This document shows, one piece after another, positions 18,967-36,133 of a DNA stretch of 64,000 bases. Position numbers and translations under genes: made by a program. The notes under the pieces are model-generated. The model had not been told where the DNA came from. It saw only the letters and a program-made list of their open reading frames with translations, and searched no databases. Numbering within the stretch: the stretch's first letter is position 1; every line of letters starts with the position of its first letter. Origin of the DNA: an uncultured Bacilli bacterium (GTDB lineage Bacteria > Bacillota_I > Bacilli_A > RF39 > UBA660); assembly GCA_934168205.1 (NCBI GenBank), contig CAKPMX010000003.1, positions 66,753-130,752 of the forward strand, written 5' to 3'.

Positions 18967-21201
18967 CTATCCAATTGTATAGTAATTAAATTGACTAGTA
19001 TTTCTCCAATCATATTGTGCCCATAGGTCTGTTGCTGGACTACCTGGGTCCATCATTACGACACTACCATTTGATATACCATCTATTGCTACCCAGTGTT
19101 GACCTGTATTACCTTTTACTTCAGCAACTACATAGTTATTTTTATTACTAAGTAGTTCTTGTAATTTACTTAATTTTGCTTCTTTTGATAAACCTTCTAC
19201 TACTACTCTTCCCATGTATTTAAATGATGGTACTATACTTGTAACTGTTCCCCAGTTTAAAGAACCATTACCTGTAAATCCACCAAGTCTGTTTAAAGCT
19301 TGAACGAAAGTTCCTGGATTAAAGTCTCCAGTAATTGTAGTTGGTTGACCTGATTTTGCTACTAACATAGATATTGATGTTACTAAACAACCAATATTTT
19401 TAATTGTTTTTCCAGAAGAACCTATTTGAACACTTGTCCATTCACCTTCATATTGTTTCCAGTTTGCATATGGACCAGATGATAGTATAGAGCATGATGT
19501 ACTACCATTAATATTACAACTGTTTTCCTCTACTTTGTTGGCAGCAGCATAGTGTGATATTAATATTTGTTTGTAGTCAAGCCCTGATGCTGCATCACTT
19601 TTCCATTTGTTTTGGTTTACACTTGTATATCCAGAATTTATTAGGTAACCATTGTTATCTACTAATACTTGTCCCATTACTGAGCTTACGGCAGTTCGTA
19701 AATCTGAGTCTTCTGGCAACTTATCTTTTATTGTAACAGACTTGGTATGTGCTCCTGAGAATATAGTAGCACCGGATTTATCAGCACTTCCAGCTGACAC
19801 ACTTGTTGAACAACCTTGATCTGGATCACAATAAACTTGATCTTCAGTACAATTTCTGATTTGTAAAATAGTTTGTCCATTTTCTTCTTCTAGTTTTAAA
19901 CCAAAGGCACCATTCATTGCTTTTGGTCTAACTAAAGCGTAAGTTCTAGCGGCAATAGCTTGAACTTTATAGGCTTCAGAATTGTTTCCCGGACCCATTT
20001 CGGCATAAACAACTCCAGTAACATACTTCTCAAAATCAACTAGTTCTTCACCTGGAATTGGTTTCCCTCTTCCTAAATCACCACAGGTCATTAGTCTTAC
20101 CTTAATATTAGAAGCATTCGTTTCCTTTGCAATAGTACCTTTACCAGTGTTGAATCCTTTGATTTTATATGTACAAGTTCCTTGTGCAGCACAAGTTGAA
20201 CTTGGAGCATATTTATCAACCAGGCTCTCATAGTTTTTGGCATAATTTATTACTTCTTCAGCCAATATTTCTCTTTTTCTTTTACTATATTCTGGAAAAT
20301 AATCAACAAAAATGTCATTAACAAGATTATTTTTAAATGTCTCTTCGTTATAAGTATTTCCATCAAACATGCTTTCAGCAATTTCTTTGATTTTGCTTTT
20401 TGACATATCGTCATAATCTACTGAAGGATCATAATAATTAATTATATGATATACAGCAGCAACTCTAACTGCTTTTACTGTTTTTCCTTCTGATTGCATT
20501 TCTAATTTTACATCATTTATTCTTTCATAAAACTCTTTTGCTTCCTTGCTTGAAGCAGTGTAATCATTGCCATCTGTTTGTTCGCCAGCAGCATCACTGG
20601 CACCAAGAGCATCATCCATATCGCCTGCATATGTACCCGAAAACAATGTAGCCGTTAGTAATAGTAGAAAGAAAAAGGCAAAAATTGGTAACACAATTGG
20701 CAAAGCTTTTTTTAGTAAAACTTTACCATATGCAGAAAGTGCACCATCATTTTCGCTGGCATTATCTCCTTTGCCCTCTTTTTCCTTTTTATCACCAAGT
20801 ATTTTGGATTTTGGAAGTGATGTACCAGAACTCTTTTGTTGTTTGCCTGCAGTATCTGTACCAGCAGAAGTGGCATTACTAGCATCACCAGATGCTAATC
20901 TTGCTGCTTGACCGGCTTTATCTCCCATTCCAGATTCATTTACTTTATTAAGTTTTTTTTGTAGTTTTTTTCCATTAGGCATTTTGTTAATAGTATCTGT
21001 TAAACCTTTACCTAACATTTCACTACTCTTGCCACCAGTTAATTTATCGGCGGCTTTGACAGCTGCTCCAGCTGCCATTGCATATGGATTTTTACTGGCA
21101 ATAGCTATGTCAGCTGCATTTTTTACATTTTGAGCATTGTTTTTATCAGCACGTTCTGTGTCACTTGTACTTCCTTTTCTATTGGCTCTATAAGATGACA
21201 T
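18967..21201 (-). CDS. Bifunctional cell-wall hydrolase (SpoIID-like lytic domain plus C39-like cysteine peptidase domain); VirB1 analogue
   Basis: 744 aa. About 160 aa of G/A/K/S-rich N-terminus, then one TM. SpoIID/LytB signature VVYAEMGPGNNSEAYKVQAIAARTYAL. C-terminus NIGCLVTSISMLVA...GQHWVAIDG...VVMMDPGS. Confidence 0.65.
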   Translation of the reverse strand: MSSYRANRKGSTSDTERADKNNAQNVKNAADIAIASKNPYAMAAGAAVKAADKLTGGKSSEMLGKGLTDTINKMPNGKKLQKKLNKVNESGMGDKAGQAARLASGDASNATSAGTDTAGKQQKSSGTSLPKSKILGDKKEKEGKGDNASENDGALSAYGKVLLKKALPIVLPIFAFFFLLLLTATLFSGTYAGDMDDALGASDAAGEQTDGNDYTASSKEAKEFYERINDVKLEMQSEGKTVKAVRVAAVYHIINYYDPSVDYDDMSKSKIKEIAESMFDGNTYNEETFKNNLVNDIFVDYFPEYSKRKREILAEEVINYAKNYESLVDKYAPSSTCAAQGTCTYKIKGFNTGKGTIAKETNASNIKVRLMTCGDLGRGKPIPGEELVDFEKYVTGVVYAEMGPGNNSEAYKVQAIAARTYALVRPKAMNGAFGLKLEEENGQTILQIRNCTEDQVYCDPDQGCSTSVSAGSADKSGATIFSGAHTKSVTIKDKLPEDSDLRTAVSSVMGQVLVDNNGYLINSGYTSVNQNKWKSDAASGLDYKQILISHYAAANKVEENSCNINGSTSCSILSSGPYANWKQYEGEWTSVQIGSSGKTIKNIGCLVTSISMLVAKSGQPTTITGDFNPGTFVQALNRLGGFTGNGSLNWGTVTSIVPSFKYMGRVVVEGLSKEAKLSKLQELLSNKNNYVVAEVKGNTGQHWVAIDGISNGSVVMMDPGSPATDLWAQYDWRNTSQFNYYTIG

Positions 21202-21223: not shown

Positions 21224-23014
21224 CTATAGTCCTCCTCCAGTACCGAAAGAGTCTAATTCTTCTTTTGTTACTGTAACATTTATTCGCATACGTCTATTTC
21301 CACAAACGAACAAAGCTTCTCCTTGTGAATATCGTTTTATACTTTCTTTTTCACTTTCATTTAAATCAATTAATAATGATAAGTCTTCTACTGCTTGTTT
21401 TCTTAGACCCATGACTAAGTAATATGATGAGTTATCAAATATTGCTTTTCCTTGTGTAATAACTGCAGGATCTGAGAAATCACTTGGTTGTTGAGTAATA
21501 ATTATTGTCCCTGTATTGTACTTACGTGCACGACGTTGTACTTGAGCAAGGAAATCTGCTCCTAATGTGTTCTTATCTCCTAATAATACGTGTGCTTCAT
21601 CAACCATTAGGACAGTATCAACATCGTAGTCTAAACATAGACCCCAGGCATATTTTAAAACGTTAAAGAATAAAGCATTTTTTACTGTTGTATCACTATT
21701 CATTAACTCTTTAATATTAAATACCATGAAGTCACTATCTTTACTTATTGTTGTGTGTCCATCAAAATAGAATTTTAACTCTTTTGTTATAGGTCTAACT
21801 TTTAATTCAAGACGTTCCATAATTTCACGCTCTTGAGTTTGTTCAGTCATTGACATTAATCTACCTTTTATCGTGGCATATACATCACTGAATGTTGGAT
21901 AATCAGCACTAGTATAATGTGAAAAGTCTGTATTAAAATCAATTCCAAAACGTTTATATGTATCTTGAACAACTTCACTAAACATTGTTAAGACATCTTC
22001 TTGAATTGATGGATCATAGTATTTCATAAATGCTTTTAAGAATTGTAAGGTTCTTGTTAAAACTGTATAACCAAGACCTTGTTTTATTTCTTCTTCGTCA
22101 GCATCTATTACTACTTCCAATGGATTTATTAAACCAAACTCTCCACCTTTACCAATGTCTACTGTGTCACCACCAAAGGCTTGAGTTATTTCTCTAAATT
22201 CATCTTCTGGATCGATTATAACAATTTGACAACCATTACGAATATGTCCTCTTAGTAATAGTTTTGCTGCTGTTGATTTACCTGAGCCAGATGTACCTAA
22301 CATAATCATGTTGGCATTATTTCTATTATTTTCTTTTCTTATTTTATATAAGAATTGATTGAATAAAATTACTCCACCAGAAAAATCTACTCCTAGTAAT
22401 GTTGATAATCCTGGATCTTTAATGCTATCAAAGATGAATGGATACATAGCCGCTATTGTTACTGAAGGTATTGGTGTACCAATACGTTGTTCTATATCTT
22501 GTGATGGGAATATTGGTAAAATTGATTTTAATACCTTTTCCTGTTCAAAACGTAATGATATAGCACGTAATTCCATAGCATCTAGATAGTTTTTAACATT
22601 AACTTTCTTTAGTTCCAATCCTTCTTTTGTAGGAGAAGTAATCATAATATGCATTTGAAAGTCGAAAATACGAGCTTGACTCGCAGCTAGCATAGAAACA
22701 AAGTATTCCAAACTTTCAGCATCTTGACGATATCTTTCGCGAACTGTTAAGTCACGTTCATTTTTATATTTTTCTTTTAAGTCAGCAACCTGTTTATTTA
22801 ACATTTTTGCCATTTGTTGAAATGGTACTGGAATGTGTTTAACTACGACTTTAATTCCAGGCATGTTAGTTAAAGATGATAAATAACCTGGCTGAATATA
22901 TTTTGGATATGATACAACTGTTAAAATTGTTGCATAGTTATCACTGATAACAAAGTCACTTGGATTAAAATGTAGTCCTTTTGGTGCTAATTGACTTTTG
23001 ATTCCGATACTCAT
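21224..23014 (-). CDS. VirB4-family T4SS ATPase (C-terminal/ATPase part of a split VirB4)
   Basis: 596 aa. Walker A MLGTSGSGKSTAAK. Walker B VLMVDEAHVLL. TAATG overlap with the preceding ORF. Confidence 0.85.
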   Translation of the reverse strand: MSIGIKSQLAPKGLHFNPSDFVISDNYATILTVVSYPKYIQPGYLSSLTNMPGIKVVVKHIPVPFQQMAKMLNKQVADLKEKYKNERDLTVRERYRQDAESLEYFVSMLAASQARIFDFQMHIMITSPTKEGLELKKVNVKNYLDAMELRAISLRFEQEKVLKSILPIFPSQDIEQRIGTPIPSVTIAAMYPFIFDSIKDPGLSTLLGVDFSGGVILFNQFLYKIRKENNRNNANMIMLGTSGSGKSTAAKLLLRGHIRNGCQIVIIDPEDEFREITQAFGGDTVDIGKGGEFGLINPLEVVIDADEEEIKQGLGYTVLTRTLQFLKAFMKYYDPSIQEDVLTMFSEVVQDTYKRFGIDFNTDFSHYTSADYPTFSDVYATIKGRLMSMTEQTQEREIMERLELKVRPITKELKFYFDGHTTISKDSDFMVFNIKELMNSDTTVKNALFFNVLKYAWGLCLDYDVDTVLMVDEAHVLLGDKNTLGADFLAQVQRRARKYNTGTIIITQQPSDFSDPAVITQGKAIFDNSSYYLVMGLRKQAVEDLSLLIDLNESEKESIKRYSQGEALFVCGNRRMRINVTVTKEELDSFGTGGGL

Positions 23015-23559
23015 TATGACATCACCGTCCCAAACTCAGTATTTTCTCCACCATTTAAGAAATTCTCTAAAATAATTCTTAAATCAGCATTGTTAACTTG
23101 AGAAGCATTTAGTCCACAACTAGCAAGTCCATTAATCATTGTTCTGACACGTTTTTGTAGTATATCTACATTTTTATCCTTAAATAATAAGTAGTATTCT
23201 GTATCAACAATATTATTATTAATAAACATGTTTCCTTTATTGATATCTTGTAGTATTAATTTTCTAATTGCTGGATTTGGAGCTTCATTATATAAAAGTT
23301 GAAGTTGTGCCATATAAACTGAAATATCAACCGGACGGTCAGCAACTACTAACCAGAATTCAAAGTCCAACATATTATAAAAGTTTTTTAGACTTATAAG
23401 GACATTGTCTTGGGCATTTTGATCAAGAATAAATATATTTCTAGGTGTAATTTTAACACCTGTTACTTTTTGATTATTTGAAGTTATAATAAATCCATTT
23501 TGAATTCCTTTCACTGGTAACCAGTCTTCTGTATAACCAGATGTTACTTTTTTAGCCAT
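23014..23559 (-). CDS. VirB4 N-terminal domain protein (split gene)
   Basis: 181 aa. YTEDWLPVKGIQNGFIITSNNQKVTGVKITPRNIFILD resembles the N-terminus of Gram-positive VirB4 proteins. 181 + 596 aa together match a full-length VirB4. Confidence 0.55.
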   Translation of the reverse strand: MAKKVTSGYTEDWLPVKGIQNGFIITSNNQKVTGVKITPRNIFILDQNAQDNVLISLKNFYNMLDFEFWLVVADRPVDISVYMAQLQLLYNEAPNPAIRKLILQDINKGNMFINNNIVDTEYYLLFKDKNVDILQKRVRTMINGLASCGLNASQVNNADLRIILENFLNGGENTEFGTVMS

Positions 23560-23876: not shown

Positions 23877-25766
23877 TTATAATCTATCTCCAATCGTTGG
23901 GTCAACTCCATTTCTTGTATTAAAATCATCAGCAGTGTTGTCATGATAATTTTCTCGAGCTCGTGGCACAGCTCTGTCTTGTCTTCTTGTTGAAGTGTAT
24001 GGATGTCTTCTTCCCTTTGCTTTTTCACGATATCCTAAAGTTTGACCAAAACGTTTTTGTTCACTAGCCATATCATTGTATGCAGATTCTGCTGCAGTGG
24101 CATAGGCTCTTTGTTCTGCAAGTTTTCGATCAAATTGATCTGCCCTAACTTGTTTACTTACAGTATGCCCATTGGCGTCTTGATAATATACTGTGTATGC
24201 ACCATTGGTTGCTCCAACTTTCTTGGCATCTTCCATTCCTTGCAATATACTTGACTGTAATTTCATATCTTTTTTGTAATCTTTTGCTATATTCGGCGTA
24301 ATTCCTTCTCTTGCAAGTATACTTCTACCACGTCTCATCTGGTTATATGTCATCTTGTCATCGCCAGTAATCATTTTTGCCGCCAGATCTCTTCCGGAAT
24401 TGTAAGAATCTGCCAACCCAGGAGCAGCTTTACCTGAATTATATGCATTAACGTTTGTATCGACAGTATCTCTTACTGCATTAAAGGCATCGCCAAAAGT
24501 TCCACCTGCTCTAAGTGTCCCAATGCCAGAAAGGCCCATTGCTAAACCAATGCTTCCACCCATGCCTTTTATTCCAAGGGAATTTTCAATAAATTTAGGT
24601 GCCATTCTGGCAAAGATAAATATACCAATAACAATAAATATAAATGAAAGCACGCCAACAAAACCAGTTCCTGTGTTGATAACAATACCATTTTTGACCA
24701 TATCGCTTACTAGGTATATAACAAAGTACATAATTGCTAATCGTATAAACAATTCTAAGTAAGTACTAGTTAAACTCCTAACCCAGCAACTGAAAGCGTC
24801 TTCACCCTTTCCTTCTTTAGCAGATATACTCATATGACTAATAATTGGTATTGGAGCTATTAAACGAAGTATTGCCAATTTTAGTGCCCTGATAGCAACA
24901 TCTATTGTATATAGTATTAAAATAACAGAAATAATTAAGGCTACAATTCCAGCTAATGGACTGTATGAATATCTGTAAAATTTTTCTTTTCCAACAAATG
25001 TTTCCAATAAATCTACAAATTTATCCCACAAATTGCTGTCAGCATCTATGTCACAAGTATCATTAACTGTAGCTAGCAATTCTAATGTAGATGCTGTTTT
25101 ATAAAATTTTTTTTGCTCTGAAGTGAATGAACAAAAGTAATAATCTTCATTAGTTTCTGGGTCCAAGCCTTCTTCTACATCGTACCCTCCGTCTGGTTCT
25201 GGTACAATATTTATTCTATAAAAGCTACGAAGTATTTGTCCAGCAAAGTCATCTGCCGACTCTGCCAAGGTTTTTCCTTGTTCATCTGCATCATCAGCTG
25301 CTTCTGTTGTTCCTAATACTAATTTACCAACGGTGTTATTTGACAAGATTCTTTCTTGTAACGAATATAAAGCACCAAATAATATACCATTGTTGTTTAC
25401 TTGTTGTTCCCATTTATTGCTAGGATTAGGAATATTTATTGGAGTAATTAAGGCAAGAATGACTAATGAAGTAATAATTCTAGAAATTATTTTTCCAGCA
25501 CCAGCCTTTTTATCTGTTACTCTTGCTGGATCCATTATTCCTTCTAGTATTGTCACGGATAATTTAAAAAGCATAAAAACGCCAATTATTAATTGACATC
25601 TATAATAAAAGTCTCTAATTAAAGCATTCGAAAACAATTCAGCTGTTGAAACATTGAAAAAAACTTGATAAACTCCCTGCAATAAAAGAAAGAAAAGTCT
25701 ATCAAAAAAAGTTAAAATTGTCCTTATGGCATCCGATACAATGCCAGGAGTCATGTAATCTGTCAT
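23877..25766 (-). CDS. VirB6/TrbL-like polytopic T4SS channel protein with a long hydrophilic C-terminus
   Basis: About 7 TM helices in the first ~400 aa, then ~230 hydrophilic aa. The start is set at ATG 25766 (ATGA overlap with the upstream stop; GGAGG 8 nt upstream). Confidence 0.6.
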   Translation of the reverse strand: MTDYMTPGIVSDAIRTILTFFDRLFFLLLQGVYQVFFNVSTAELFSNALIRDFYYRCQLIIGVFMLFKLSVTILEGIMDPARVTDKKAGAGKIISRIITSLVILALITPINIPNPSNKWEQQVNNNGILFGALYSLQERILSNNTVGKLVLGTTEAADDADEQGKTLAESADDFAGQILRSFYRINIVPEPDGGYDVEEGLDPETNEDYYFCSFTSEQKKFYKTASTLELLATVNDTCDIDADSNLWDKFVDLLETFVGKEKFYRYSYSPLAGIVALIISVILILYTIDVAIRALKLAILRLIAPIPIISHMSISAKEGKGEDAFSCWVRSLTSTYLELFIRLAIMYFVIYLVSDMVKNGIVINTGTGFVGVLSFIFIVIGIFIFARMAPKFIENSLGIKGMGGSIGLAMGLSGIGTLRAGGTFGDAFNAVRDTVDTNVNAYNSGKAAPGLADSYNSGRDLAAKMITGDDKMTYNQMRRGRSILAREGITPNIAKDYKKDMKLQSSILQGMEDAKKVGATNGAYTVYYQDANGHTVSKQVRADQFDRKLAEQRAYATAAESAYNDMASEQKRFGQTLGYREKAKGRRHPYTSTRRQDRAVPRARENYHDNTADDFNTRNGVDPTIGDRL

Positions 25767-26257
25767 TTTTGCATCCCTCCCCAATTAAAAATACATATAT
25801 CGCTAGATGTGAAACCAAATATGTCTAAAACAACTTCAATGAGTGTTGGCAAAACGAACAATAATGCAGCTAGAATTAATCTTGTGATCAAACTACTTTG
25901 AGCTTTCTTTAGACTCTCATCATCCGATGTTAAAATTGCTTTAGCAAAGTCCAAACTACTTAACACTAATACCATTAATGGTCCTAATAGTCTTAAGTAA
26001 TTTAATATTTTAACAAGAAACCAGGCTACAGAATCTGGATCTTTTTCAGGATCACCAAGTATTCCTTTACATTCCTTGTTATCCTTTAAACTACTAATTA
26101 CCGCTACTACTGAATTAGAGTTAATTGAATCACTAATTACGGCCATTTTCGAATCAAAAGTAATTGGATTAATAGTACTTTTTGCTGAAACATTGAATGA
26201 ACTAAAGCTTATTAGTCCAATAAATATAAGGAAAAGAATATTTATTCTTTTTTTCAT
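25763..26257 (-). CDS. VirB2/TrbC-like hairpin pilin-like protein, paralog 2 (with signal peptide)
   Basis: 164 aa. Signal peptide MKKRINILFLIFIGLISFSSFNVSA. The C-terminal two-helix hairpin shares D.(A/G)KA(I/V)..SD(D/E)...KKAQS.LI.R with ORF 26326..26667. Confidence 0.55.
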   Translation of the reverse strand: MKKRINILFLIFIGLISFSSFNVSAKSTINPITFDSKMAVISDSINSNSVVAVISSLKDNKECKGILGDPEKDPDSVAWFLVKILNYLRLLGPLMVLVLSSLDFAKAILTSDDESLKKAQSSLITRLILAALLFVLPTLIEVVLDIFGFTSSDICIFNWGGMQK

Positions 26258-26300: not shown

Positions 26301-26330
26301 GAAAAAAAAAATAGCAATTTATTTGCTATT
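26301..26330 (-). terminator. Intrinsic terminator/attenuator after the first VirB2-like gene
   Basis: Minus strand AATAGCAA-ATAAA-TTGCTATT (8-bp stem, 26310-26330, overlapping the TAG stop) followed by a 9-nt T-run. Confidence 0.6.
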
Positions 26331-26667
26331 TATTTACTATATATATACTATTCCAGCAAGTTGCCCAAGTTCCAGTAGAACCATCAGTAATACCGATACT
26401 TACGATTCCCATAATTAATGAAACTAATTGTGGTACTAAGAATACTACAACTGCGTAGATAACTCTTTTTATTAATCTTGATTGAGCAGCTTTTACTTCT
26501 TTTTCATCACTTGCGATAACAGCTTTACCTAAATCAAATACTCCAAATAGTAGTAAAGCTATTGGAATCAAAATACATATATATTTTAAAATACCATTTT
26601 TAATAATTTTAATTACAGGTTCTAATCCTTCACAAGCTCCGCCTACATTTCCTACTTTATTACCCAT
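26326..26667 (-). CDS. VirB2/TrbC-like hairpin pilin-like protein, paralog 1
   Basis: 113 aa. Two hydrophobic helices joined by the loop DLGKAVIASDEKEVKAAQSRLIKR. AGGAGAGG SD. It has its own promoter and terminator. Confidence 0.55.
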   Translation of the reverse strand: MGNKVGNVGGACEGLEPVIKIIKNGILKYICILIPIALLLFGVFDLGKAVIASDEKEVKAAQSRLIKRVIYAVVVFLVPQLVSLIMGIVSIGITDGSTGTWATCWNSIYIVNK

Positions 26668-26693: not shown

Positions 26694-26722
26694 ATAATAT
26701 CCCATGTACATTTATTTGTCAA
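26694..26722 (-). promoter_or_regulatory. Sigma-A type promoter for the VirB2-like gene
   Basis: Minus strand TTGACA (26717-26722), 17 nt, TATTAT (26694-26699). Confidence 0.55.
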
Positions 26723-26725
26723 TTA

Positions 26726-27724
26726 TTATTTTCTGAATAAGCCAAATACCCTACCTGAATTAGCATCATTATTTGCTGTTTGACTTATTAATCCAGTTCT
26801 AACTAAGAAGTCATTAATAGCACCATTTCTTTGTCTTTCATCCAATGGTGGCATATTATAAGCAACTTGTATATTTGATTCCATTTCGAAATCAGATATA
26901 TCTTTACTTGATAATAGACTCTTATTTAGAATTACCTTTTTATTTCTTACTCTATTGAAAGCACTAGGCTCTCTTCTTATTAACTTATTTAATTTAATAA
27001 TACTAGGTTCAATTAAATAGAACACTTCATGACATACTTCATCATGTGGGTATGCATTTAAATCTATTAATATAACTGGAGCCTGACTGTTACTAGCAAT
27101 TAGATTTTTTAAATCATCTTTACTTACGGAAAGCATGTTTTTTTGATTAAAAAACATGAAATCACGTTTATCTACTTCAATTGCTAGAACTGATGTATTT
27201 AGTGCAGCTTCCAACTCTTTTTTAAGCATATAGATTAATGTTGTAGAACCGGCATTATCTGTTATACTTCTAAATCCTATTATCACTGAACTTTTATTTT
27301 CTGCAGTAGGAGTTGCTGTAGCAGCTACTTGTAAAGAACGTCCAGCCATTTCTTGGATGTGTTCAACATCTTTATATGTATTGGATTTTTGAAGTAAATA
27401 CTTTATACCATCTATATTATTGGTAAAATTGTATAAACCATATGTTATAATTCTAGCTAAAAAAGTAGCAGTACATAACTTAGAATTTTCTGGTATATAT
27501 AACACTACTTTTTCAGGATCTAATTGTTGTGCTAAAATTTGATAATTATCGGGATTATCATACCCTTTAATAGCAGTTACATCAAGAATCATTTTATTGA
27601 AGAAAAAGTTCTTAAACATTTCTACTATTTCTCTTGCTTCATAACTACCAGTAACTGTTTTAATAATGTCAATATCTAATGCTGACAGTGATTGTTGTTG
27701 TTCATTTGCTATTATAACGTTCAT
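26726..27724 (-). CDS. TadZ/CpaE-like protein (pseudo-receiver plus degenerate ParA/MinD-like domain)
   Basis: 332 aa. The N-terminal ~120 aa are receiver-like. The second half is ParA-like, but the Walker A position reads IIGFRSITDNAGSTTLIYML (no GKT/S). Confidence 0.45.
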   Translation of the reverse strand: MNVIIANEQQQSLSALDIDIIKTVTGSYEAREIVEMFKNFFFNKMILDVTAIKGYDNPDNYQILAQQLDPEKVVLYIPENSKLCTATFLARIITYGLYNFTNNIDGIKYLLQKSNTYKDVEHIQEMAGRSLQVAATATPTAENKSSVIIGFRSITDNAGSTTLIYMLKKELEAALNTSVLAIEVDKRDFMFFNQKNMLSVSKDDLKNLIASNSQAPVILIDLNAYPHDEVCHEVFYLIEPSIIKLNKLIRREPSAFNRVRNKKVILNKSLLSSKDISDFEMESNIQVAYNMPPLDERQRNGAINDFLVRTGLISQTANNDANSGRVFGLFRK

Positions 27725-27749
27725 CTATATCATCACCCGTTTTCTCAAA

Positions 27750-28199
27750 TTAATTACTTGACGGTACAAATGCTTTTGTTGTACCTGATACTTGGAACAT
27801 TTTTAGATTTGGCATTATTTTATTAATTATTGGAATATCTATAACTATGGCTGTTGTTACTTGATAGTAAACTTTTTTCTTTAAGTCAACATTTTCTGTA
27901 TCAGTTTCTGCTTCCATTCTTTTTATACAGTATGAATCATTGCATTCGTATCCTTCAATATTTAAGCTACCGGCGTTATATCCAACAGATTTCATGTAAT
28001 CTTTAATAACTTGATTACACTTGTTACTTGGGTTACCTGGCTCACAAGCACCTTCATATTGTTCTATTGTAGTGATTATTTTATTTTTTACACGAAATGC
28101 CTTTGTATAGTTGACATTGAATGCTAAATATCCTGATACTAATACCAAGAAAACAACAATAATTACCATGTTCATAAGTCCACCAAATGCATCACGCAT
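27750..28199 (-). CDS. TadE-like pseudopilin candidate
   Basis: 149 aa. Short leader MRDAFGG followed by the hydrophobic helix LMNMVIIVVFLVLVSGYLAF. Cys-containing globular part. It lies directly after the Flp-like gene. Confidence 0.45.
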   Translation of the reverse strand: MRDAFGGLMNMVIIVVFLVLVSGYLAFNVNYTKAFRVKNKIITTIEQYEGACEPGNPSNKCNQVIKDYMKSVGYNAGSLNIEGYECNDSYCIKRMEAETDTENVDLKKKVYYQVTTAIVIDIPIINKIMPNLKMFQVSGTTKAFVPSSN

Positions 28200-28219
28200 A
28201 ACTAATCACCTCTTTTTAT

Positions 28220-28393
28220 TTATCTTCTTTCTAATACGATCATACCATTAGGATCATTGTTAGAAATATTATCCCATTGGCTATTTATTGAATTTTTGAT
28301 ATTTGGCCACATAATCCAGAAAAAACCAATAACAGCTGCTATAGCAATTAAAGTAATTACTGTTAAGTTTAATTCTCCTGTTGCTGCTTTCAT
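28220..28393 (-). CDS. Flp-type/type IV-like minor-size pilin (57 aa), absent from the ORF track
   Basis: Hand translation: MKAATGELNLTVITLIAIAAVIGFFWIMWPNIKNSINSQWDNISNNDPNGMIVLERR. AAAGGAG SD. The position between tadC and the tadE-like gene matches tad loci. Confidence 0.6.
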   Translation of the reverse strand: MKAATGELNLTVITLIAIAAVIGFFWIMWPNIKNSINSQWDNISNNDPNGMIVLERR

Positions 28394-28426
28394 CTACGCA
28401 TCGCTCCTTTCTATTATTACAATTTT

Positions 28427-28455
28427 ATTATAGCAAAATGTATTATTTTTATCAA
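28427..28455 (-). promoter_or_regulatory. Near-consensus sigma-A promoter for the Flp-like pilin gene
   Basis: Minus strand TTGATA (28450-28455), 17 nt, TATAAT (28427-28432). Confidence 0.6.
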
Positions 28456-28463
28456 TATTTTTT

Positions 28464-29273
28464 CTACATATTAAACATCATCATCATAGAGATTAAAATT
28501 ATTAACATAACGCCAACACCAGTTACTACTAACATAACCATGGTTTGACTTTCCATATGACCAAGACGTTCTTTATACTTAGTTTCACGGGCTTTATTTT
28601 GAAGATTTGATACCGTTCTTGAAAACATCATTAATCTTTCTTGTTTCTTTTCTTGTGATCCTAAACCTAATCTATATAACAAACGCATCATACGCATAGA
28701 ATCACGTACAGGATAAGTATTTGCAAAATCCATATATGGATCAATACTTGCATCACCTGAATTTATTTTATTAATCAATTCTCTTAAACCTGGTTTGAAA
28801 ATTTCAGGAGCATCATCTATAGATTTACCTAATGCTACTGGTACAGTATAGTGTTGAATTAAGATTTCCAAACTTTTTAAGTAATATGGTAACATTATGT
28901 CTATTTCGTGTAGATGAGATTTATAAAAACTCTTAAGTTGCATGTATGGTATTTTAAACATAACTACTCCAACTACAACAGATAACACTAAGTTTAAAAA
29001 AAATTGGGAATTAAATAGAGATCCTGATGAGCCACCTGTTGCTGTTATTGCTAGTATTACTAGAAAAGCAACAATAGCATAAGTACATCTTTTCATATAT
29101 AACTGGTCTACATCTACTTCTTCTCCATATTTAGCAAAAACTAAGAATGTATAATCTTCTTCTCTAAAGGCTTGTAAATATTTTTCATTGTCAATCATAA
29201 ATTTCTTTTTATCAATGGTACCATTGTAAATAAATATTCCTATTATGATTGCTCCTACTATTAACGCTTCCAT
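28464..29273 (-). CDS. TadC-like type II secretion system F-family membrane protein
   Basis: 269 aa. TM, cytoplasmic helical domain, C-terminal TM pattern. TAATG coupling to tadB-like. Confidence 0.6.
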   Translation of the reverse strand: MEALIVGAIIIGIFIYNGTIDKKKFMIDNEKYLQAFREEDYTFLVFAKYGEEVDVDQLYMKRCTYAIVAFLVILAITATGGSSGSLFNSQFFLNLVLSVVVGVVMFKIPYMQLKSFYKSHLHEIDIMLPYYLKSLEILIQHYTVPVALGKSIDDAPEIFKPGLRELINKINSGDASIDPYMDFANTYPVRDSMRMMRLLYRLGLGSQEKKQERLMMFSRTVSNLQNKARETKYKERLGHMESQTMVMLVVTGVGVMLIILISMMMMFNM

Positions 29274-30175
29274 TATTCAGCACCTACATTCTCATTATAG
29301 TATTTTTCTCCTTTTAAAAGGAAATAAGTATTTATAATTAATACTCCATGAAGTAGGAATTTTATATACCATCTTTCTAGAAGAATGATATATGTTTCCC
29401 TACCAAGTAAGTATTGAACAAGCATAACCATTAGGTATAGCATTATACCGAATTGTAAGAATGATTTATGGAATGAGGCTCTTTCAATACGGTCTCTATA
29501 AACACTTTCTACTAACATATCTATGTCTAACTGCATGTTATCTAATGAATCAGCTGAATTTCTAGCACCTTCTTTTGTTATTTGTAAGAATAACTGGTGC
29601 ATGTTTTTTACAATGTAGTATGGATAAGTTCTGCTCATATAAGCAAGGGACTCATCAATACTACCATTTTTATAGGCTAATTCTATCATATAATCGACAT
29701 CACTTTTTACGGGATCTTCTAAAATACCAGAGTTTCTTACTCCTTCTAGAGATTTAACGAAACTTTGTGTTGTGGCAAATTCCATAATTACATTTGATGT
29801 ATATACTTGAATTTGTTCAAAGATAAATTCACTATATACTCTTTTACATCTTAAATATGATAGATATGGTACAAACATAATAACTATTAGTATATAAAAT
29901 ATACAAATAACTAAGTTATAGAAATATAGATATGTTACTGCACCAGCAAATACTGACATTCCAATTACTTGAAGAGCGTATTGCTTAGCAGTATACTCCT
30001 GACCTAACTCTTTTGTTTTCTCTCTTACTACTTTAAATGAGTAAGGAGCAAATCTATCATACATTTGTTGAACTTGGACAGTAATAAATTTTCCAACATT
30101 CTGCCCTTTATAGTTTCTATAAGCTAAAATAGCAAAGGCAATAACTATTAAAATTAATAATTCTTCTATATACAT
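29273..30175 (-). CDS. TadB-like type II secretion system F-family membrane protein
   Basis: 300 aa with the same architecture as the TadC-like protein. It follows the TadA-like ATPase. Confidence 0.6.
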   Translation of the reverse strand: MYIEELLILIVIAFAILAYRNYKGQNVGKFITVQVQQMYDRFAPYSFKVVREKTKELGQEYTAKQYALQVIGMSVFAGAVTYLYFYNLVICIFYILIVIMFVPYLSYLRCKRVYSEFIFEQIQVYTSNVIMEFATTQSFVKSLEGVRNSGILEDPVKSDVDYMIELAYKNGSIDESLAYMSRTYPYYIVKNMHQLFLQITKEGARNSADSLDNMQLDIDMLVESVYRDRIERASFHKSFLQFGIMLYLMVMLVQYLLGRETYIILLERWYIKFLLHGVLIINTYFLLKGEKYYNENVGAE

Positions 30176-30199: not shown

Positions 30200-30826
30200 T
30201 TATTGTTGAACACCAGGATTACTATCTAATGTTGGTAATGGTTCTGGTATAACTGGTGATACACTTGGTATCACTTGTGCATTTGCATTTGGTATTACAA
30301 CAGTTTCTGGCTGTAATGGTACATTTGCTGGAGCTTCAGTTGCTGGTGTTAATGGTATAATTGGCTGAGGAACGCTAGGTTGTTGTGCTTCTTGAGTTAC
30401 TGTTGCTGGTTGCTCCGGTATTGGTTGAGTCATAACTGTTTGTAAGTTTGGTAATACTACTTCTGGTTGTAATGGTACATTTGTTGTTGATGCTGGTGTT
30501 GGTAATACTGGTGCTGTAGGTATTACTTGACTTGTACTAGGTTGTTCTGTTCCTGCAACTGTTGGTGTTGTTTGGTTTTCTGGTTGTACTTGCGTAGGTG
30601 TTGGTACTACTTCTTGATTTACAGGTGTTGCAGTTGGCAATACTGGCGCTGTTGCTGGAACAGGTTCTGAAGTTGGTATTACATTCTCAGTAGGTTTTTC
30701 ATTATTCGCAACAACAGCACTTGTCTCTAGTGTTGTACCTGCGTTTTCTTTAGACCCTTCAGTTTCTTTAGTCTTTGTTTCTGGACTAGCATTTTCTGCT
30801 GGTGCAGTAGTATCATCGTCTTTTTC
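30200..30826 (-). repeat. Degenerate in-frame coding repeats (PT-rich tail of the TadA-like ATPase)
   Basis: Recurrent DNA units such as ttctgg(c/t)tgtaatggtacatttg(c/t)tg. Peptide repeats NVPLQPE(V/T)V and APVLPT. Confidence 0.6.
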
Positions 30827-31903
30827 ATTATCAAAAGGAAGATCATCTACCATATGACTTGTAACTGAAGTGATATCAATATTTTGATTTTCTAGATATT
30901 CAATTAAATGTTTACTAGGTTTTCTAAGCATTGCTTCTTTTCCAAATACTTTTTGATATATAGTTCTACTCTTTGGCTGATTATTTTCATCAACATAAAA
31001 TTCTGTTACTTCATCCACTTCACGATGAAATTTACCTTTTTCCTTACTGTAATATGCTCTTATATGAACACCTAGTTGAATATATCTATAAATTGTTGAT
31101 AGGAACTGATTAACATCTAAGTCAGTTTCCATCAAACTATATAAACGGTATGGAATTGCTGATGCTTTATCGGCGTGAATTGTAGATAAGATATTGTGTC
31201 CTGATGATATAGAGTTACGTACAGCTGTAACTGCTTCAGCACTACGTACTTCTGATAGTAGAATCCATTTTGGATTCTGACGCATACAAGTAACTAATAC
31301 ATCAGTGTAACTAGCAACGTTATTTGTTTTCATTGCTACTATATCACGTTGTGGGAATATTTTATCTAAGTGCAATTCCAATGTATCTTCAATAGTAATA
31401 ATTTTTTCATTTGTTTTAGTATGACTGGCAAGGTATTTTACAAACTCTGTTTTACCTGAACCAGTTTCACCAGATACGATTATGTTACAATGTCCTTCTA
31501 CACATTTAATTAAAATATCATGAATATCTTGTGTGAAATAATCGTCTTTAAGTAATTTTTCTTTTTCTAGACGTATTTTAGCTGGTGTTTTACGTATAAC
31601 CATAGCAATACCATTTGTTGCTATTGAAGGATGTACAAAGTTAAGACGTAATTCACTTGATTCAGCATCTAGAAATGGCTTAGCATTATTGAAAGTTGTT
31701 CCCATGACGTTAGAACATTGAAATGCTAGTTTTTCTACAAACTCTGGTGTTGCTCCGTTAACTTCTACCCGAATAGAGCCTTGTGTTAGAGAACGAATCC
31801 ATATCTGCCCATTATTATCATAGGATATATCAGTAATGTCATCATCATCTAATAGGGATTTTAAAGGCCCAAAATCAAGTTTATCAAAAATATTTTCGTT
31901 CAT
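30200..31903 (-). CDS. TadA/CpaF-family secretion ATPase with a ~205-aa P/T/Q/V-rich C-terminal tail
   Basis: Walker A SGETGSGKTEFVKYL. Asp box IITIEDTLEL. Walker B ILLSEVRSAEA. His box LSTIHAD. The tail runs from about aa 360 to 567. Confidence 0.85.
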   Translation of the reverse strand: MNENIFDKLDFGPLKSLLDDDDITDISYDNNGQIWIRSLTQGSIRVEVNGATPEFVEKLAFQCSNVMGTTFNNAKPFLDAESSELRLNFVHPSIATNGIAMVIRKTPAKIRLEKEKLLKDDYFTQDIHDILIKCVEGHCNIIVSGETGSGKTEFVKYLASHTKTNEKIITIEDTLELHLDKIFPQRDIVAMKTNNVASYTDVLVTCMRQNPKWILLSEVRSAEAVTAVRNSISSGHNILSTIHADKASAIPYRLYSLMETDLDVNQFLSTIYRYIQLGVHIRAYYSKEKGKFHREVDEVTEFYVDENNQPKSRTIYQKVFGKEAMLRKPSKHLIEYLENQNIDITSVTSHMVDDLPFDNEKDDDTTAPAENASPETKTKETEGSKENAGTTLETSAVVANNEKPTENVIPTSEPVPATAPVLPTATPVNQEVVPTPTQVQPENQTTPTVAGTEQPSTSQVIPTAPVLPTPASTTNVPLQPEVVLPNLQTVMTQPIPEQPATVTQEAQQPSVPQPIIPLTPATEAPANVPLQPETVVIPNANAQVIPSVSPVIPEPLPTLDSNPGVQQ

Positions 31904-31932: not shown

Positions 31933-32736
31933 TTAACTTTCAGTCCATACTGTAACTTTATTAATCCAATTCTTTAAATCTTCACTTGATATTGTAATAT
32001 CTCCAGGCTTATCAGATAAGCTTTCATTTGTTGGAACTGGAATTAAAGTTGTATCATAATTTCTTAAATATTCTGCTTTTTTCAATAAGATGTACATATC
32101 TTCAGGTACAGCAAATATAATCATTGCTGGTGTTCTTTGCTCATCTAAATTAGCAAATACTGCTTGTCCTGAAGCATCTTTTACTGCTAGAACTTTAACG
32201 TTTTCAACAAGTTTTCCTAGCATGATCTTATCTGCATCTGCAGTTACTTCATTACCTGTTAATTTATTTACAGCTTTTAGGTAAATATCAATATAGTTTT
32301 CTGGATATATTGAGTTACCATATGTTGATTGTGTATTAACTGACATATTGTATAATACATATCCTTTTGGATATTTTAAAATTATACTCGCAGGTAATTG
32401 AGCTTCTTCTACTACAGCAGTTGAGTAGAATAAGCTACCTTCTGGAATAATACTATCAGGACGTGCATACTTATCAATTATTTGTGATTGTTGAGTAAGC
32501 ACGTTTCCTTTTAGCATTGAAGGTGGAACTTGAATTGTTCCAACCTTGTCTTGTGTTATTTGTGTTCCACCTTTGATAGTTTCTTTGGCATAAGGAACAG
32601 TTATTGGATTAACAGCACTTTTAACACGCATGTTATAACCAACGTATAATACTAAAACTGCAAGTACTACACCAATTACAGTTACAGTATTTTTGTTTTG
32701 TAAAAATTTCTTTAGTCCATTTGTAGTATTCCCCAT
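31933..32736 (-). CDS. CpaB/RcpC-like Flp pilus assembly protein (SAF-type domain)
   Basis: 267 aa. N-terminal TM, then ITVPYAKETIKGGTQITQDKVGTIQVP, typical of the CpaB SAF domain. It lies directly upstream of tadA. Confidence 0.6.
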   Translation of the reverse strand: MGNTTNGLKKFLQNKNTVTVIGVVLAVLVLYVGYNMRVKSAVNPITVPYAKETIKGGTQITQDKVGTIQVPPSMLKGNVLTQQSQIIDKYARPDSIIPEGSLFYSTAVVEEAQLPASIILKYPKGYVLYNMSVNTQSTYGNSIYPENYIDIYLKAVNKLTGNEVTADADKIMLGKLVENVKVLAVKDASGQAVFANLDEQRTPAMIIFAVPEDMYILLKKAEYLRNYDTTLIPVPTNESLSDKPGDITISSEDLKNWINKVTVWTES

Positions 32737-32758: not shown

Positions 32759-33283
32759 TTAGTTACCAGTTTTATTTTTATTGGTACTATTTTCTTGCTT
32801 ATATCCTTTTTGAGGGTCAGTTGTTGTTATAGGCTGACCTAACTCATTTTCAGGATCTAAATAAGCATTCTTAAGATACATATCATTTGTTATGGTTGAT
32901 TCAACGATTCCATCAAAACTTGTAGACATTATTAAGTTTTGACTATCGAAACTAAGAACTGTTGCTGAATCAACTTTTACACTTACTTTTGGTGGAACTT
33001 CATTTAAATCATAAAATCCTATTTTGTAGTTTCTAGTATTATCTACGCTATCAGCAAAACGTCTTAGGAAGCTTTCTACAAATTTGTCTTTATCCATTCT
33101 AATGGCACCATTATCACGATAGTATTTAATATCAATTGCATCTTCAATTGCGGCTTCTGTTGTTTCTTTTACTAAGTAATAATCTAATTCATTACCAGTA
33201 GAATAATTAGAAATAACATTTATTAATAACAATCCCATTAACGCTAGAATAATTATACCAACTGTTAACATTCCTTTATTCAT
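32759..33283 (-). CDS. Pseudopilin-like protein
   Basis: 174 aa. Leader MNKG followed by MLTVGIIILALMGLLLINVI, then a globular domain. Confidence 0.4.
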   Translation of the reverse strand: MNKGMLTVGIIILALMGLLLINVISNYSTGNELDYYLVKETTEAAIEDAIDIKYYRDNGAIRMDKDKFVESFLRRFADSVDNTRNYKIGFYDLNEVPPKVSVKVDSATVLSFDSQNLIMSTSFDGIVESTITNDMYLKNAYLDPENELGQPITTTDPQKGYKQENSTNKNKTGN

Positions 33284-33286
33284 ATA

Positions 33287-36133
33287 CTAACCTCCTATTC
33301 CAGTTAAACTTGAATAGTTATTACAAGAGTCATTTTCTTGGTTGTTACATCCAAGTTTTCCTACTTTGTTTATATACTTACTGTCTAATGTACTTCCAAG
33401 TCCTCTAAATAGTGAACTATTATATACTGATACTCCGTTTACTATTTCAAATTTACCAGTAAAGTTTGTATAGTTTCCAGATGTAGTATGTTTTCTTATA
33501 GCTTTTAAGGCCTCTCTGTCGAGTACAAATTCATATTCTAGATTAGTGTCTGAATATGTTTCTCCGTTTCTTTCTTTTGTTTGAATATCTTCTAATAATG
33601 CAGTTGGAGCAATTATATAATCTTCGTTCTTTAAGTTTGTGGCATTAATTGTCCAGTTAAATCCTGGTGTTCTTCCTGTTTTCGTTGCATCAGTTGTATC
33701 ATTTCCTTCAGGTGATGGGAACAAATCTGCAGTATCTACCGTACGGATACGATATCTTTGTGCTGGATCTTTATCTTTTATATCATCACAGTTTTTATCA
33801 ATACATGTTTTGCTTGTATCACCTGGATCCTTTTTGCCTGCTGTATCGTATAATGCATAGAAACAGCTTACATCTATTTTCCAACTAAAATGTCCAAAAT
33901 CACTTGTAGAAGCTTTAATATTGTAATCTGTGACAGCTGCTTTTAGTTGTTCATCAGTCATTGTTTCTCCAGTTACAGCATTTTTCTTTTCATTCATAGC
34001 TCCGTAATACCACCAGCCAACGTTTACATCTGCTGAATTTAGACTCGTACAGAACTTATCCTTTTTCTTATGCCATGTTTTGTCTTCTTTTTCTTTATAG
34101 CTTATTTCACCTGTTTTATTATTAATCCAAGTACCAGGGAAACTCCATTCTGTCATGTATTTATTCTTGTTTATTGTTTCTCCATAACAGTCTGATCTAT
34201 TTAAAATTATATTTGAATTATCATGAATATCAACTGCTGAACCAGTATTTGTTAAAGTTGCAGCATCATAGTTAATCCAATTATCTTCATTAGGCTTATC
34301 CTTAGTTTTATTGTTGACTTTAATAGTGAATTCTGCTGTTTTTGTTGAACATGAAGCTTCAGCTGAACAACTGCTAATAAAGTCATTATACTCGTTTAAG
34401 TCTGCTTCATAGTCCCCTTCTACATCACTATTATTTAATGGCTCGCCGTTGTCACATCCTGTGTAATAGCACGTGCTATAACACCATCTTGCTTTATCAT
34501 TAATATAATTTCCAGCTCTTTCACCGGCATCAACTTTGAATCCGTCTGCGTCTGGTGCATATAATTGATATGCATTATCTTGTCTACGCCATGTACCAAT
34601 TTTTACGCAGTTGATATCATCATTATATGTTCTAGCTGCTATTGCATTATTAGCAAAATAGTATCTAGAATATTTTGTCCAATAATATTTTCCAGCTTTC
34701 CATTTTATTTTATTATTATCATTTTTATCTCGATAATAATACCCAAATTCCGATTTTGTTTCTTTTTTATCTCCAGCTAACATAGCCTGTGACAATTCTG
34801 TGGCTGTTTTAGCATTTCCAATCGTGCAACTTATTTCGTTGGCTATTTGTTTCATTTCATAGCTTAACTTTGCTTTTGTACCATCAGAATAGACCTTGTT
34901 ATAACATTTATTAATGCAACTTTGTGTATATTTTCCATTGTCACATGAATTTATACAACTATCAAACTCCTCATTTGGACCTGCTTGATTAAAGGTACCA
35001 AAACGCCCTGTACATTGTGGTGTTGGAGTACAAACATTATAGTCATTTGGAGACGGTGGCGTACCGGATGCCTTTGTTGTACATTCTACAGTACTTGTTA
35101 CTTTGACTTTATATTCAAAACACAATCCAGCAATTGACGCAACTGGCGGACCATATTCTACAACTAGAGTTTCACTACATGCTTTTTCACATTCGTATTG
35201 ATTGTTACCTATTGTTTTTGTTTTTTTATCTACCCTATATGCATAATAGGTACTTGAATTTAAATACTGATATTCGTTACCAGCTTTATACCCTTCTGGC
35301 AGTATTGCTGGACATGTTTCTTGTATTCCTTTTTCAAATTCATCTCTGCTCGATTTAGTTGATAAATCAAATTCTTTTTTTATTCCAGCTGGTTTTTGCA
35401 ATTGACTATTGCCAGATGCATTATTTGCCAATTTATATCTTGTTATTTCTGAGGAAATCATTTTAGCAATGGTAGTTGCTGAGTAGTTTGAACTGACGTA
35501 TTGACTATTGCAATATGCAAGACTTATGTTCCCTGCATATTTTAAATACTCCTCTTTGTTAATGTTACCATTCATAGCATCATAATTTTTCTTATCATCT
35601 ATACTAGGCCATGTTCCGTTTCTTAAATATGCACAAATGCCATAATAGTTATCATTATATACTTGGTCTCTTTTTGTAGAAACACCAACATAAACGATTT
35701 CACCTTTGACATAAAAACTAGCGTTTTTGTCTTCTTGTATACTTTTATAACTTTCACCTTTTCTAATCTTTTCCATTATTGCTTCATTATCTTTGTAGCA
35801 ACTGCTTCCGACATAAACTCTCGTTATTGTAATGTCTTGAATAATATTTGGATTATATAAGATTGTAATCGGTGCTGAACTATTTAAATCATACTCCTCT
35901 ACCCTAGATATGGGATTCCCATCACTGTCAACCATTTCTTGATCTCGCTGTCTTTCTACAAAAACCTTAAATTGTCCAGATTTAGTACTTAATGTTATCG
36001 TCCCATTTTTATCATTCACAAGTTTTTCACCATATGAATCTTGACATTTTTCGGCATTTACGTCTAGACATAAAAAGAAGCTAAGACATATAAATAAAAA
36101 TCCCTTTATTATGCTTTTATATTTCTTTTTCAT
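33287..36133 (-). CDS. Large Cys-rich secreted protein (candidate adhesin/tip protein)
   Basis: 948 aa. Signal peptide ...FLCLDVNA/EK. About 29 Cys in the mature part by my count, with a dense cluster around aa 315-415. No TM or sorting signal. Confidence 0.6.
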   Translation of the reverse strand: MKKKYKSIIKGFLFICLSFFLCLDVNAEKCQDSYGEKLVNDKNGTITLSTKSGQFKVFVERQRDQEMVDSDGNPISRVEEYDLNSSAPITILYNPNIIQDITITRVYVGSSCYKDNEAIMEKIRKGESYKSIQEDKNASFYVKGEIVYVGVSTKRDQVYNDNYYGICAYLRNGTWPSIDDKKNYDAMNGNINKEEYLKYAGNISLAYCNSQYVSSNYSATTIAKMISSEITRYKLANNASGNSQLQKPAGIKKEFDLSTKSSRDEFEKGIQETCPAILPEGYKAGNEYQYLNSSTYYAYRVDKKTKTIGNNQYECEKACSETLVVEYGPPVASIAGLCFEYKVKVTSTVECTTKASGTPPSPNDYNVCTPTPQCTGRFGTFNQAGPNEEFDSCINSCDNGKYTQSCINKCYNKVYSDGTKAKLSYEMKQIANEISCTIGNAKTATELSQAMLAGDKKETKSEFGYYYRDKNDNNKIKWKAGKYYWTKYSRYYFANNAIAARTYNDDINCVKIGTWRRQDNAYQLYAPDADGFKVDAGERAGNYINDKARWCYSTCYYTGCDNGEPLNNSDVEGDYEADLNEYNDFISSCSAEASCSTKTAEFTIKVNNKTKDKPNEDNWINYDAATLTNTGSAVDIHDNSNIILNRSDCYGETINKNKYMTEWSFPGTWINNKTGEISYKEKEDKTWHKKKDKFCTSLNSADVNVGWWYYGAMNEKKNAVTGETMTDEQLKAAVTDYNIKASTSDFGHFSWKIDVSCFYALYDTAGKKDPGDTSKTCIDKNCDDIKDKDPAQRYRIRTVDTADLFPSPEGNDTTDATKTGRTPGFNWTINATNLKNEDYIIAPTALLEDIQTKERNGETYSDTNLEYEFVLDREALKAIRKHTTSGNYTNFTGKFEIVNGVSVYNSSLFRGLGSTLDSKYINKVGKLGCNNQENDSCNNYSSLTGIGG

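Follow-up and report, generated by a model that had tools for sequence, protein, structure and literature searches.

A widespread pilin-like protein family with a Gly/Glu+1 signal in a T4SS-linked Tad-like module of uncultured gut bacteria

In this study, we describe a widespread and unnamed pilin-like protein family which carries a Gly/Glu+1 signal (the slash marks the proposed cleavage site) and is encoded in a T4SS-linked Tad-like module. The member examined is the product of a 57-codon gene in the window, that is, the whole 64-kb stretch of DNA from an uncultured Bacilli bacterium that was analysed here. The gene is real and strongly conserved. The small protein is best explained as the major subunit of a Tad-like (type IVc or archaeal Epd-like) filament, a reading to which we give a probability of about 0.6 because the protein has a Gly-ended leader followed by a hydrophobic stretch, Tad-like size and a variable tail, because the family includes tandem paralogues, and because the gene lies in an ATPase/membrane-gene context behind a conserved promoter. 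The main rival is that it is an unprocessed bitopic membrane subunit. The family supplies an annotation for a very widespread gene of abundant uncultured human and animal gut bacteria.

Coding evidence and distribution of the small gene

The ATG at 28393 opened a 57-codon frame on the minus strand with its end at 28220, and the peptide was exactly the one quoted in an earlier reading of the letters alone (the sequence-only reading), which had placed it behind an AAAGGAG SD. That reading also called the gene unannotated. This holds for its own ORF track only, whereas gene callers do call the gene in public assemblies, as a 58-aa hypothetical protein. Between the two neighbouring genes (28199 to 28464) lie 264 nt: the upstream gene, for a 269-aa membrane protein, has its stop at 28464, 8 nt ahead of the -35 element, and the gene for a 149-aa protein (p149) starts at 28199, 20 nt past the small-gene stop codon and with its own SD (Table 1). 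In 83 distinct coding sequences, the mean entropy of codons 2-30 was 0.19, 0.06 and 0.89 at positions 1, 2 and 3, respectively. Variation is found at third positions, the first 30 residues being almost invariant, which indicates that the gene is translated, and the codon-position pattern demonstrates purifying selection on the protein. Furthermore, three related loci had a GTG start with the frame preserved.

A search of 5.8 billion proteins matched 1,114 cluster representatives (90% identity). Among these, the best had 72-98% identity, and many assemblies list them as proteins of 55-63 aa; any names given read 'hypothetical' or 'unknown [Mycoplasma sp. CAG:877]', and none of ten distant family members bears a name. 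A profile search of 1.84 billion 50%-identity representatives gave 506 matches at E<=1e-3 and 89 at E<=1e-10. With one genome taken per GTDB species, the small gene was present in 153 species, all of them gut MAGs labelled Bacilli, Tenericutes, Mycoplasmatota or similar, and Candidatus Faecimonas (Bacilli incertae sedis) was one of these. No match was obtained in PHROGs or, with the small protein, on plasmids, and a near-identity DNA search against plasmids gave none either. In the literature on DUF5411, on RF39 pili and on Tad together with Gram-positive conjugation, we found no description of the family.

Over 144 representatives, the N-terminus reads M1 K2 [E/A]3 A4 [T/S]5 G6 E7 L8 N9 [M/L]10 T11 V12 [I/V]13 T14. 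M1, A4, G6, E7 and T11 are each preserved in at least 143 of the 144, and Gly6 and Glu7 (the +1 residue) in 143. The hydrophobic stretch runs up to about residue 29 and is often followed by W-P. In the window protein, a 6-residue leader ending in Gly precedes 22 hydrophobic residues and a variable tail, giving a mature length of 51 aa if cut after Gly6; the family median is 52-54 aa counted from E7. Residues 1-30 are near-invariant and the tails hypervariable, some of them extending to 80-105 aa. At least two Cys occurred in the tail of 48 of the 144 representatives, and their number was even in all 48, which points to an extracytoplasmic C-terminal tail with disulfide bonds.

In one distant relative (L085-L087), there are two tandem paralogues of 94 and 82 aa, both starting MKEATGELNMTVV and both with Cys-rich tails. 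Genes for an Rce1-like (CPBP) intramembrane protease and for a thioredoxin/PedC-like protein adjoin this distant cluster on the opposite strand (525-1682); they could aid maturation or disulfide formation, or be there by coincidence.

Table 1. Window positions of the features of the small gene, the Tad-like module and the adjoining genes.
Feature	Position	Strand	Remarks
VirD4	15903-18122	-	
SpoIID/C39-like hydrolase	18967-21201	-	
VirB4	21224-23014	-	
TraC-like protein	23014-23559	-	
TrbL/VirB6-like protein	23877-25784	-	
p332, 332-aa soluble protein	26726..27724	-	TadZ/CpaE-like position; no Pfam match of the window protein
p149, 149-aa proposed minor pilin-like subunit	27750..28199	-	N-terminus MRDAFGG-LMNMVIIVVFLVLV
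Small gene CDS	28220..28393	-	57 aa (stop included in coordinates); MKAATG / ELNLTVITLIAIAAVIGFFWIMW / PNIKNSINSQWDNISNNDPNGMIVLERR = proposed leader / hydrophobic helix / variable polar tail
SD AAAGGAG	28404..28410	-	10 nt ahead of ATG; GAAAGGA(G/T) at the same place in related upstream regions
Sigma-70-type promoter TTGATA-17-TATAAT	28427..28455	-	Extended -10 (TGcTATAAT); score 11/12 plus TG
269-aa polytopic membrane protein	28464..29273	-	TadC position; always adjoins small gene
300-aa polytopic membrane protein	29273..30175	-	TadB position; T2SSF link transitive, via Priestia protein
567-aa secretion ATPase	30200..31903	-	TadA/CpaF-FlaI-VirB11 group; Pfam T2SSE 1.3e-28; VirB11, TadA-family and FlaI models
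267-aa CpaB/RcpC-like protein	31933..32736	-	SAF + RcpC domains; RcpC 6.5e-5, SAF 0.004, below curated cutoffs
174-aa DUF5411 protein	32759..33283	-	N-terminal membrane helix; PF17424 3e-49; place conserved in related loci
Sortase	36117-36929	-	

Promoter and transcription of the small gene

The near-consensus TTGATA-17-TATAAT promoter noticed earlier was found, with a TG extension: the -35 element TTGATA lies at 28455-28450, TG at 28435-28434 and the -10 element TATAAT at 28432-28427, on the minus strand and with a spacer of 17 nt. Transcription is predicted to start near 28420. When the best -35/-10 pair was taken in each of 83 distinct upstream regions, TG was present at -15/-14 in 81, TATAAT in 75 and the 17-nt spacer in 79, and the -35 element started with TTG in nearly all. 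Between the -10 element and the start codon there are 30 to 79 nt, depending on the locus, and the sequence around the promoter was not conserved. In the whole window, both strands included, there were four sites scoring at least 11/12 with a TG extension, versus 0.36 in composition-preserving shuffles. The conservation among upstream regions strongly argues that the internal promoter of the small gene is functional. A terminator-like site was looked for in 27500-29500 and none was found. Since there is none between the small gene and p149, which are 20 nt apart, the promoter should drive downstream genes as well, and the p149 gene is predicted to be co-transcribed with the small gene. The suggestion of the sequence-only reading that a major subunit is over-expressed relative to its machinery is therefore borne out as far as the conserved promoter of its own goes; however, this promoter is not specific to the pilin-like gene and would feed the genes downstream too. 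A second near-consensus promoter, TTGACA-17-TATTAT (11/12), was seen at 26694-26722 (minus strand), in the gap just upstream of a 113-aa T4SS_pilin-like gene (26326-26667), so this gene may likewise have its own promoter.

Genes of the Tad-like module

In each of the 84 related loci whose gene order was compared, the small gene had one fixed position, in the order 300-aa membrane protein, 269-aa membrane protein, small gene, p149 (sometimes duplicated) and p332. It had been described as sitting at the canonical position of a tad locus between tadC-like and tadE-like genes. This did not hold: the gene order differs, there is no TadV, the 'tadC-like' protein has no detectable T2SSF similarity and the 'tadE-like' protein p149 had no match to the TadE HMM. 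The p149 family has the logo M[RK]DAxGG..N.., and the leader M-[KR]-x-A-x-G is common to the p149 and small families. A comparison of the two families with hhalign did not support homology (E 0.26), though G-x-[LM]-N was aligned in both. The AF2 model of p149 (pLDDT 71) had a helix at residues 2-47 (46 residues) followed by a small alpha/beta head with a 4-stranded sheet. A Foldseek search of the PDB with this model gave nothing significant, the best E being 0.24 (LptE). The p149-like gene was in tandem duplicate in L020, L045, L047, L050, L054, L059, L061, L071, L076, L078 and L083. These copies lie about 150-1100 nt past the small gene and were of two types, MKDA[FY]GGI.. and MRD[AGS].G[GS]...; the distant locus L086 has duplicates of the small gene as well as of the p149-like gene.

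The 567-aa secretion ATPase belongs to the TadA/CpaF-FlaI-VirB11 group. Among solved structures, CpaF (1.6e-19) and FlaI (2.9e-19) came ahead of VirB11 (2e-13), and homologues of the ATPase were found on 617 plasmids, mostly of Bacillus, Listeria and Enterococcus. In its C-terminal third (30200-30850, minus strand), about 210 residues form a low-complexity tail that is rich in P, T, Q and V, which is unusual on a cytoplasmic secretion ATPase. The tail varies in length among relatives, the protein total being 520-567 aa here versus 430 aa in the distant L086.

With tblastn, the 300-aa protein hit a Priestia koreensis plasmid protein annotated as 'type II secretion system F family protein' at 5e-4. 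This Priestia protein matches PF00482 at 3.4e-5 with 24.2 bits, below the cutoff of 25.2, and in a Pfam scan of 37 homologues of the 300-aa protein a T2SSF match was obtained for the Priestia member only and for none of the other 36. For the 269-aa protein, neither a family or structure match nor a plasmid protein match was found, and tblastn linked it to a 279-aa protein adjoining the T2SSF-like gene of the Priestia plasmid. Its AF2 model, built from 23 homologues, had a pLDDT of 54.7 and was too poor for a fold search. Sequence searches of the PDB, made with both membrane proteins and with a profile, gave no match. The two proteins stand in the TadB and TadC positions and are at most candidate platform proteins.

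The 267-aa protein matched the pilus_cpaB model at 8.5e-9 (35 bits vs a cutoff of 71). The DUF5411 protein is possibly a further pilin-like subunit. Counterparts of p332 gave weak matches, the L086 relative to CbiA/ParA (0.0022) and the Priestia neighbour to AAA_31 (8.8e-4).

Relationship to known pilins

A Flp-like pilin had been proposed for the small gene. With PF04964 (Flp_Fap) no match was found at E<=1, the sole Pfam match at that level being a spurious one to GPI2 (0.084); no pilin model of NCBIfam was matched, and a profile of 26 homologues found no pilin, and thus no solved Tad pilin, among PDB chains. The Flp motif of Glu+5 and Tyr+6 is also absent: Gly6 is followed by E-L-N-L-T-V, so that +5 is Thr and +6 is Val, constant over the family, and an invariant Glu stands at +1 in place of Glu5. 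The atypical +1 Glu remarked on in the sequence-only reading is thus a feature of the whole family. Because neither the Flp_Fap HMM nor the motif was found, the small protein is not a member of the Flp family; it belongs to a new and unnamed pilin-like family and is not a true Flp pilin. A VirB2/TrbC-type T4SS pilin (PF18895) was likewise considered and rejected, the small protein having no match and a single hydrophobic segment rather than a two-helix hairpin. The T4SS_pilin match in this region (1.2e-4) was that of the neighbouring 113-aa protein.

The layout that had suggested a pilin, however, was confirmed. A class III signal peptide consists of a hydrophilic leader ending in Gly or Ala and 20-25 mainly hydrophobic residues, with Glu5 'often, but not always' present (Pelicic; PMC10191384). 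The small protein has this layout (IPR012902), with MKAATG followed by the 22 hydrophobic residues of ELNLTVITLIAIAAVIGFFWIMW. Furthermore, Tad pilins without a globular domain are reported to be 40-60 aa long (PMC10710030), and the mature small protein falls in this range and has no globular domain. We consider it probable that the protein works, and is placed, like a Tad major pilin.

Compared with the major pilins of Flp/Tad systems (Caulobacter PilA, PDB 8U1K; Aggregatibacter Flp1), the small protein is similar in having 40-60 mature residues, one helix and no globular head, and in a short hydrophilic Gly-ended leader before the hydrophobic stretch, without Pro22. Its gene, too, lies beside those for a CpaF/TadA-type ATPase, two tandem membrane proteins and a CpaB/RcpC-like protein. 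It is different in that PF04964 is not matched, the leader has only 6 residues and the 8-residue Glu5-Tyr6 motif is replaced by the invariant G/E-L-N-[LM]-T-V-[IV]-T. Moreover, the locus has no tadV and is joined with a T4SS cluster, its candidate platform genes precede the pilin-like gene, and its host is a monoderm. Imam et al. (2011; PMC3244431) have described tad-like loci of Gram-positive bacteria in which small putative 'Flp-like' pilins lack Tyr6 or no prepilin is recognisable, and their Firmicutes loci resemble the present one in having biosynthetic genes only distantly related to canonical tad. Those loci mostly retain tadV and are not fused to VirB4/VirD4, and the Gly/Glu+1 family was not seen among them in the text consulted (PMC3244431).

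The archaeal Epd (EppA-dependent) pilins of Methanococcus offer another comparison. In Methanococcus, Epd pilins need Gln at +1 for their dedicated peptidase EppA (PMC4371748), and Epd-like systems are the closest relatives (sister group) of Tad (PMC6668835). Like the small family, Epd systems combine a short major pilin with two platform genes in tandem (candidate ones here), and their pilins have an obligatory polar +1 residue (Gln in Epd, Glu here) and no requirement for Glu5 (PMC4371748; PMC6668835). The obligatory +1 Gln of Epd pilins is therefore a precedent for the +1 Glu. However, no sequence similarity was detected between the two, the -2 residue of the small family is Thr or Ser and not Lys or Arg, the host is bacterial, and no dedicated peptidase was found for the small family.

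Rival readings: unprocessed subunit, secreted peptide or chance ORF

The A24 prepilin peptidase (GxGD-type) motif was found in no ORF of the window and nowhere in 1.06 Mb of 89 related loci. Such a peptidase could still be encoded elsewhere in the genome. Two other candidates for processing the leader, the rhomboid (51387-52538) and the Rce1-like gene beside the distant locus, were set aside, nothing linking either of them to the cluster.

The missing peptidase motif speaks for the main rival, in which the small protein is an unprocessed single-pass membrane subunit, stoichiometric and structural or regulatory, of the ATPase/platform or the T4SS inner-membrane complex and does not polymerise. 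Small bitopic subunits are common in T4SS inner-membrane complexes. The family also lacks Glu5, and a 47-aa single-TM protein (gene 41) of the pLS20 family occupies an analogous place and has no SPIII-like motif (PMC8557374). Against this stand the invariant short Gly-ended leader, which is common to the small gene and p149, and the hypervariable, sometimes Cys-rich and longer tails and the tandem paralogues, which are typical of exposed fibre subunits and not of buried ones. The dedicated strong promoter also argues for a high copy number. We regard an unprocessed subunit as unlikely, though it deserves to be taken seriously.

A further, very improbable reading makes the small protein a bacteriocin, pheromone, exclusion factor or similar peptide, secreted or active on membranes, that is merely co-located with transfer genes. 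The small size, own promoter and variable C-terminus would suit such a peptide; however, no double-glycine or Sec-type cleavage site follows the hydrophobic segment, no immunity or transporter partner is present, the conserved part is the membrane helix and not the tail, and the place inside the ATPase/platform/p149 block is fixed in 84 of 84 loci and in distant relatives as well. Finally, although ORFs of at least 40 aa arise often by chance in the window and promoter-like hexamers at 9/12 are no commoner there than in shuffles, a chance ORF in AT-rich intergenic DNA or an RNA element is refuted by the conservation pattern, namely the codon-position entropy, the more than 1,100 homologous clusters and the frame kept in the three GTG-start loci, and no Rfam family was matched in the region.

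Proposed mechanism of the filament

If the small protein is the major subunit of a Tad-like filament, the prepilin would insert with its 6-residue leader in the cytoplasm and its tail outside the cell. The leader would be cut off after Gly6, and the helical subunit of about 51 residues, with the invariant Glu as its first residue, would be polymerised by the CpaF/FlaI-like ATPase together with the two membrane proteins. We infer that the new N-terminal Glu may provide the buried negative charge that is given by Glu5 elsewhere. p149, and perhaps the DUF5411 protein too, would be minor or tip subunits. The strong conserved internal promoter and the SD would meet a high demand for subunits and re-drive the downstream part of the cluster. 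The filament could cooperate with the VirB4/VirB6/VirD4 machine of the same operon, either as an adhesion/mating-contact pilus or as a wall-spanning pseudopilus, and it probably serves the co-transcribed T4SS and may be linked to DNA transfer.

A pilin-type signal of Gly/Glu+1 without Glu5 escapes current pilin predictors and HMMs. Conjugation systems of monoderms are usually said to lack a pilus (PMC4027160; PMC8557374). A conserved pilin-like subunit, predicted to be highly expressed and accompanied by its own assembly ATPase inside a VirB4/VirD4 cluster, together with the recognisably related block of the tractable plasmid pLS20, provides a testable filament candidate for such systems.

Comparison with the pLS20 family

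In the pLS20 family, genes 36-41 have been described as of unknown function, one of them a putative VirB11, and no pilus homologues were said to be encoded (PMC8557374). These genes resemble the module: a DUF5411-like protein comes with an ATPase of the CpaF/VirB11 family, two membrane proteins (about 250-300 aa), a protein of pilin size that has a TM at its N-terminus, and tandem small single-TM ORFs, and behind these come a T4SS_pilin-like protein, VirD4, VirB6 and VirB4. In the B. subtilis natto plasmid pNARUSE, a member of this family (L089, 8296-13115), genes 36-45 resemble the window block. They include a DUF5411-like protein (1.4e-5), the ATPase, two membrane proteins, a DUF4320-like 120-aa protein with an N-terminal TM, and a 76-aa protein matching T4SS_pilin at 1.3e-7; two identical 47-aa single-TM ORFs are annotated, with an apparent third, unannotated paralogue just upstream. 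In contrast to the small protein, the 47-aa protein of pLS20 has neither the M-K-x-A-x-G/E motif nor detectable similarity. Relative to the cluster described here, its small and mid-sized genes come in the opposite order. Furthermore, pLS20 is a plasmid with a relaxase, whereas the window cluster is chromosomal and has no relaxase or integrase among the ORFs scanned.

Possible but doubtful is a wider reading, in which the Gly/Glu+1 family is the fibre subunit of an unrecognised Tad/Epd-like filament class in Gram-positive-type T4SS clusters, the diverged pLS20-type genes 36-41 included, with a non-canonical class III signal and a distal or non-A24 protease. If this were true, at least some monoderm T4SSs would have a pilus or pseudopilus after all, and reduced-genome gut Bacilli would have domesticated the whole machine on their chromosomes, either to exchange or take up DNA or to attach to other cells.

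Chromosomal setting of the gene cluster

The small gene is part of a co-oriented cluster of about 14.6-40.3 kb (14600-40300, minus strand) in which a Gram-positive-type T4SS, the Tad-like module, and a sortase with large surface proteins are combined. Downstream of the module come two T4SS_pilin-like proteins, the TrbL/VirB6-like and TraC-like proteins, VirB4, the SpoIID/C39-like hydrolase and VirD4. Upstream of the small-gene block are the ATPase, the CpaB/RcpC-like and DUF5411 proteins, a 948-aa secreted Cys-rich protein, the sortase and an Ig-domain surface protein. The cluster is flanked by housekeeping genes, with Lon, trigger factor, a class I tRNA synthetase and RmuC on one side and GreA, U32 peptidases, YceG, DnaE and BipA on the other. 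A Pfam scan of the window ORFs, some of the smaller ones excepted, found neither a relaxase nor an integrase. The Tad-like core and the adjacent T4SS genes stand in constant order in related loci of many MAG species. Because of the housekeeping flanks, the lack of a relaxase or integrase among the scanned ORFs and the constant order in many species, the cluster has the appearance of a machine domesticated on the chromosome and not of an ICE.

The 948-aa protein (33287-36133, minus strand), encoded between the sortase and DUF5411 genes, is secreted, very Cys-rich and without a Pfam domain. It was the least conserved gene product of the block, with 25-81% identity across loci, as expected of an exposed adhesin or tip protein. 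A gene for a 562-aa protein with a C-terminal serpin domain (2.2e-46) directly adjoins the cluster (40422-42110, minus strand), and the rhomboid intramembrane protease gene, on the same strand, lies 11 kb beyond it.
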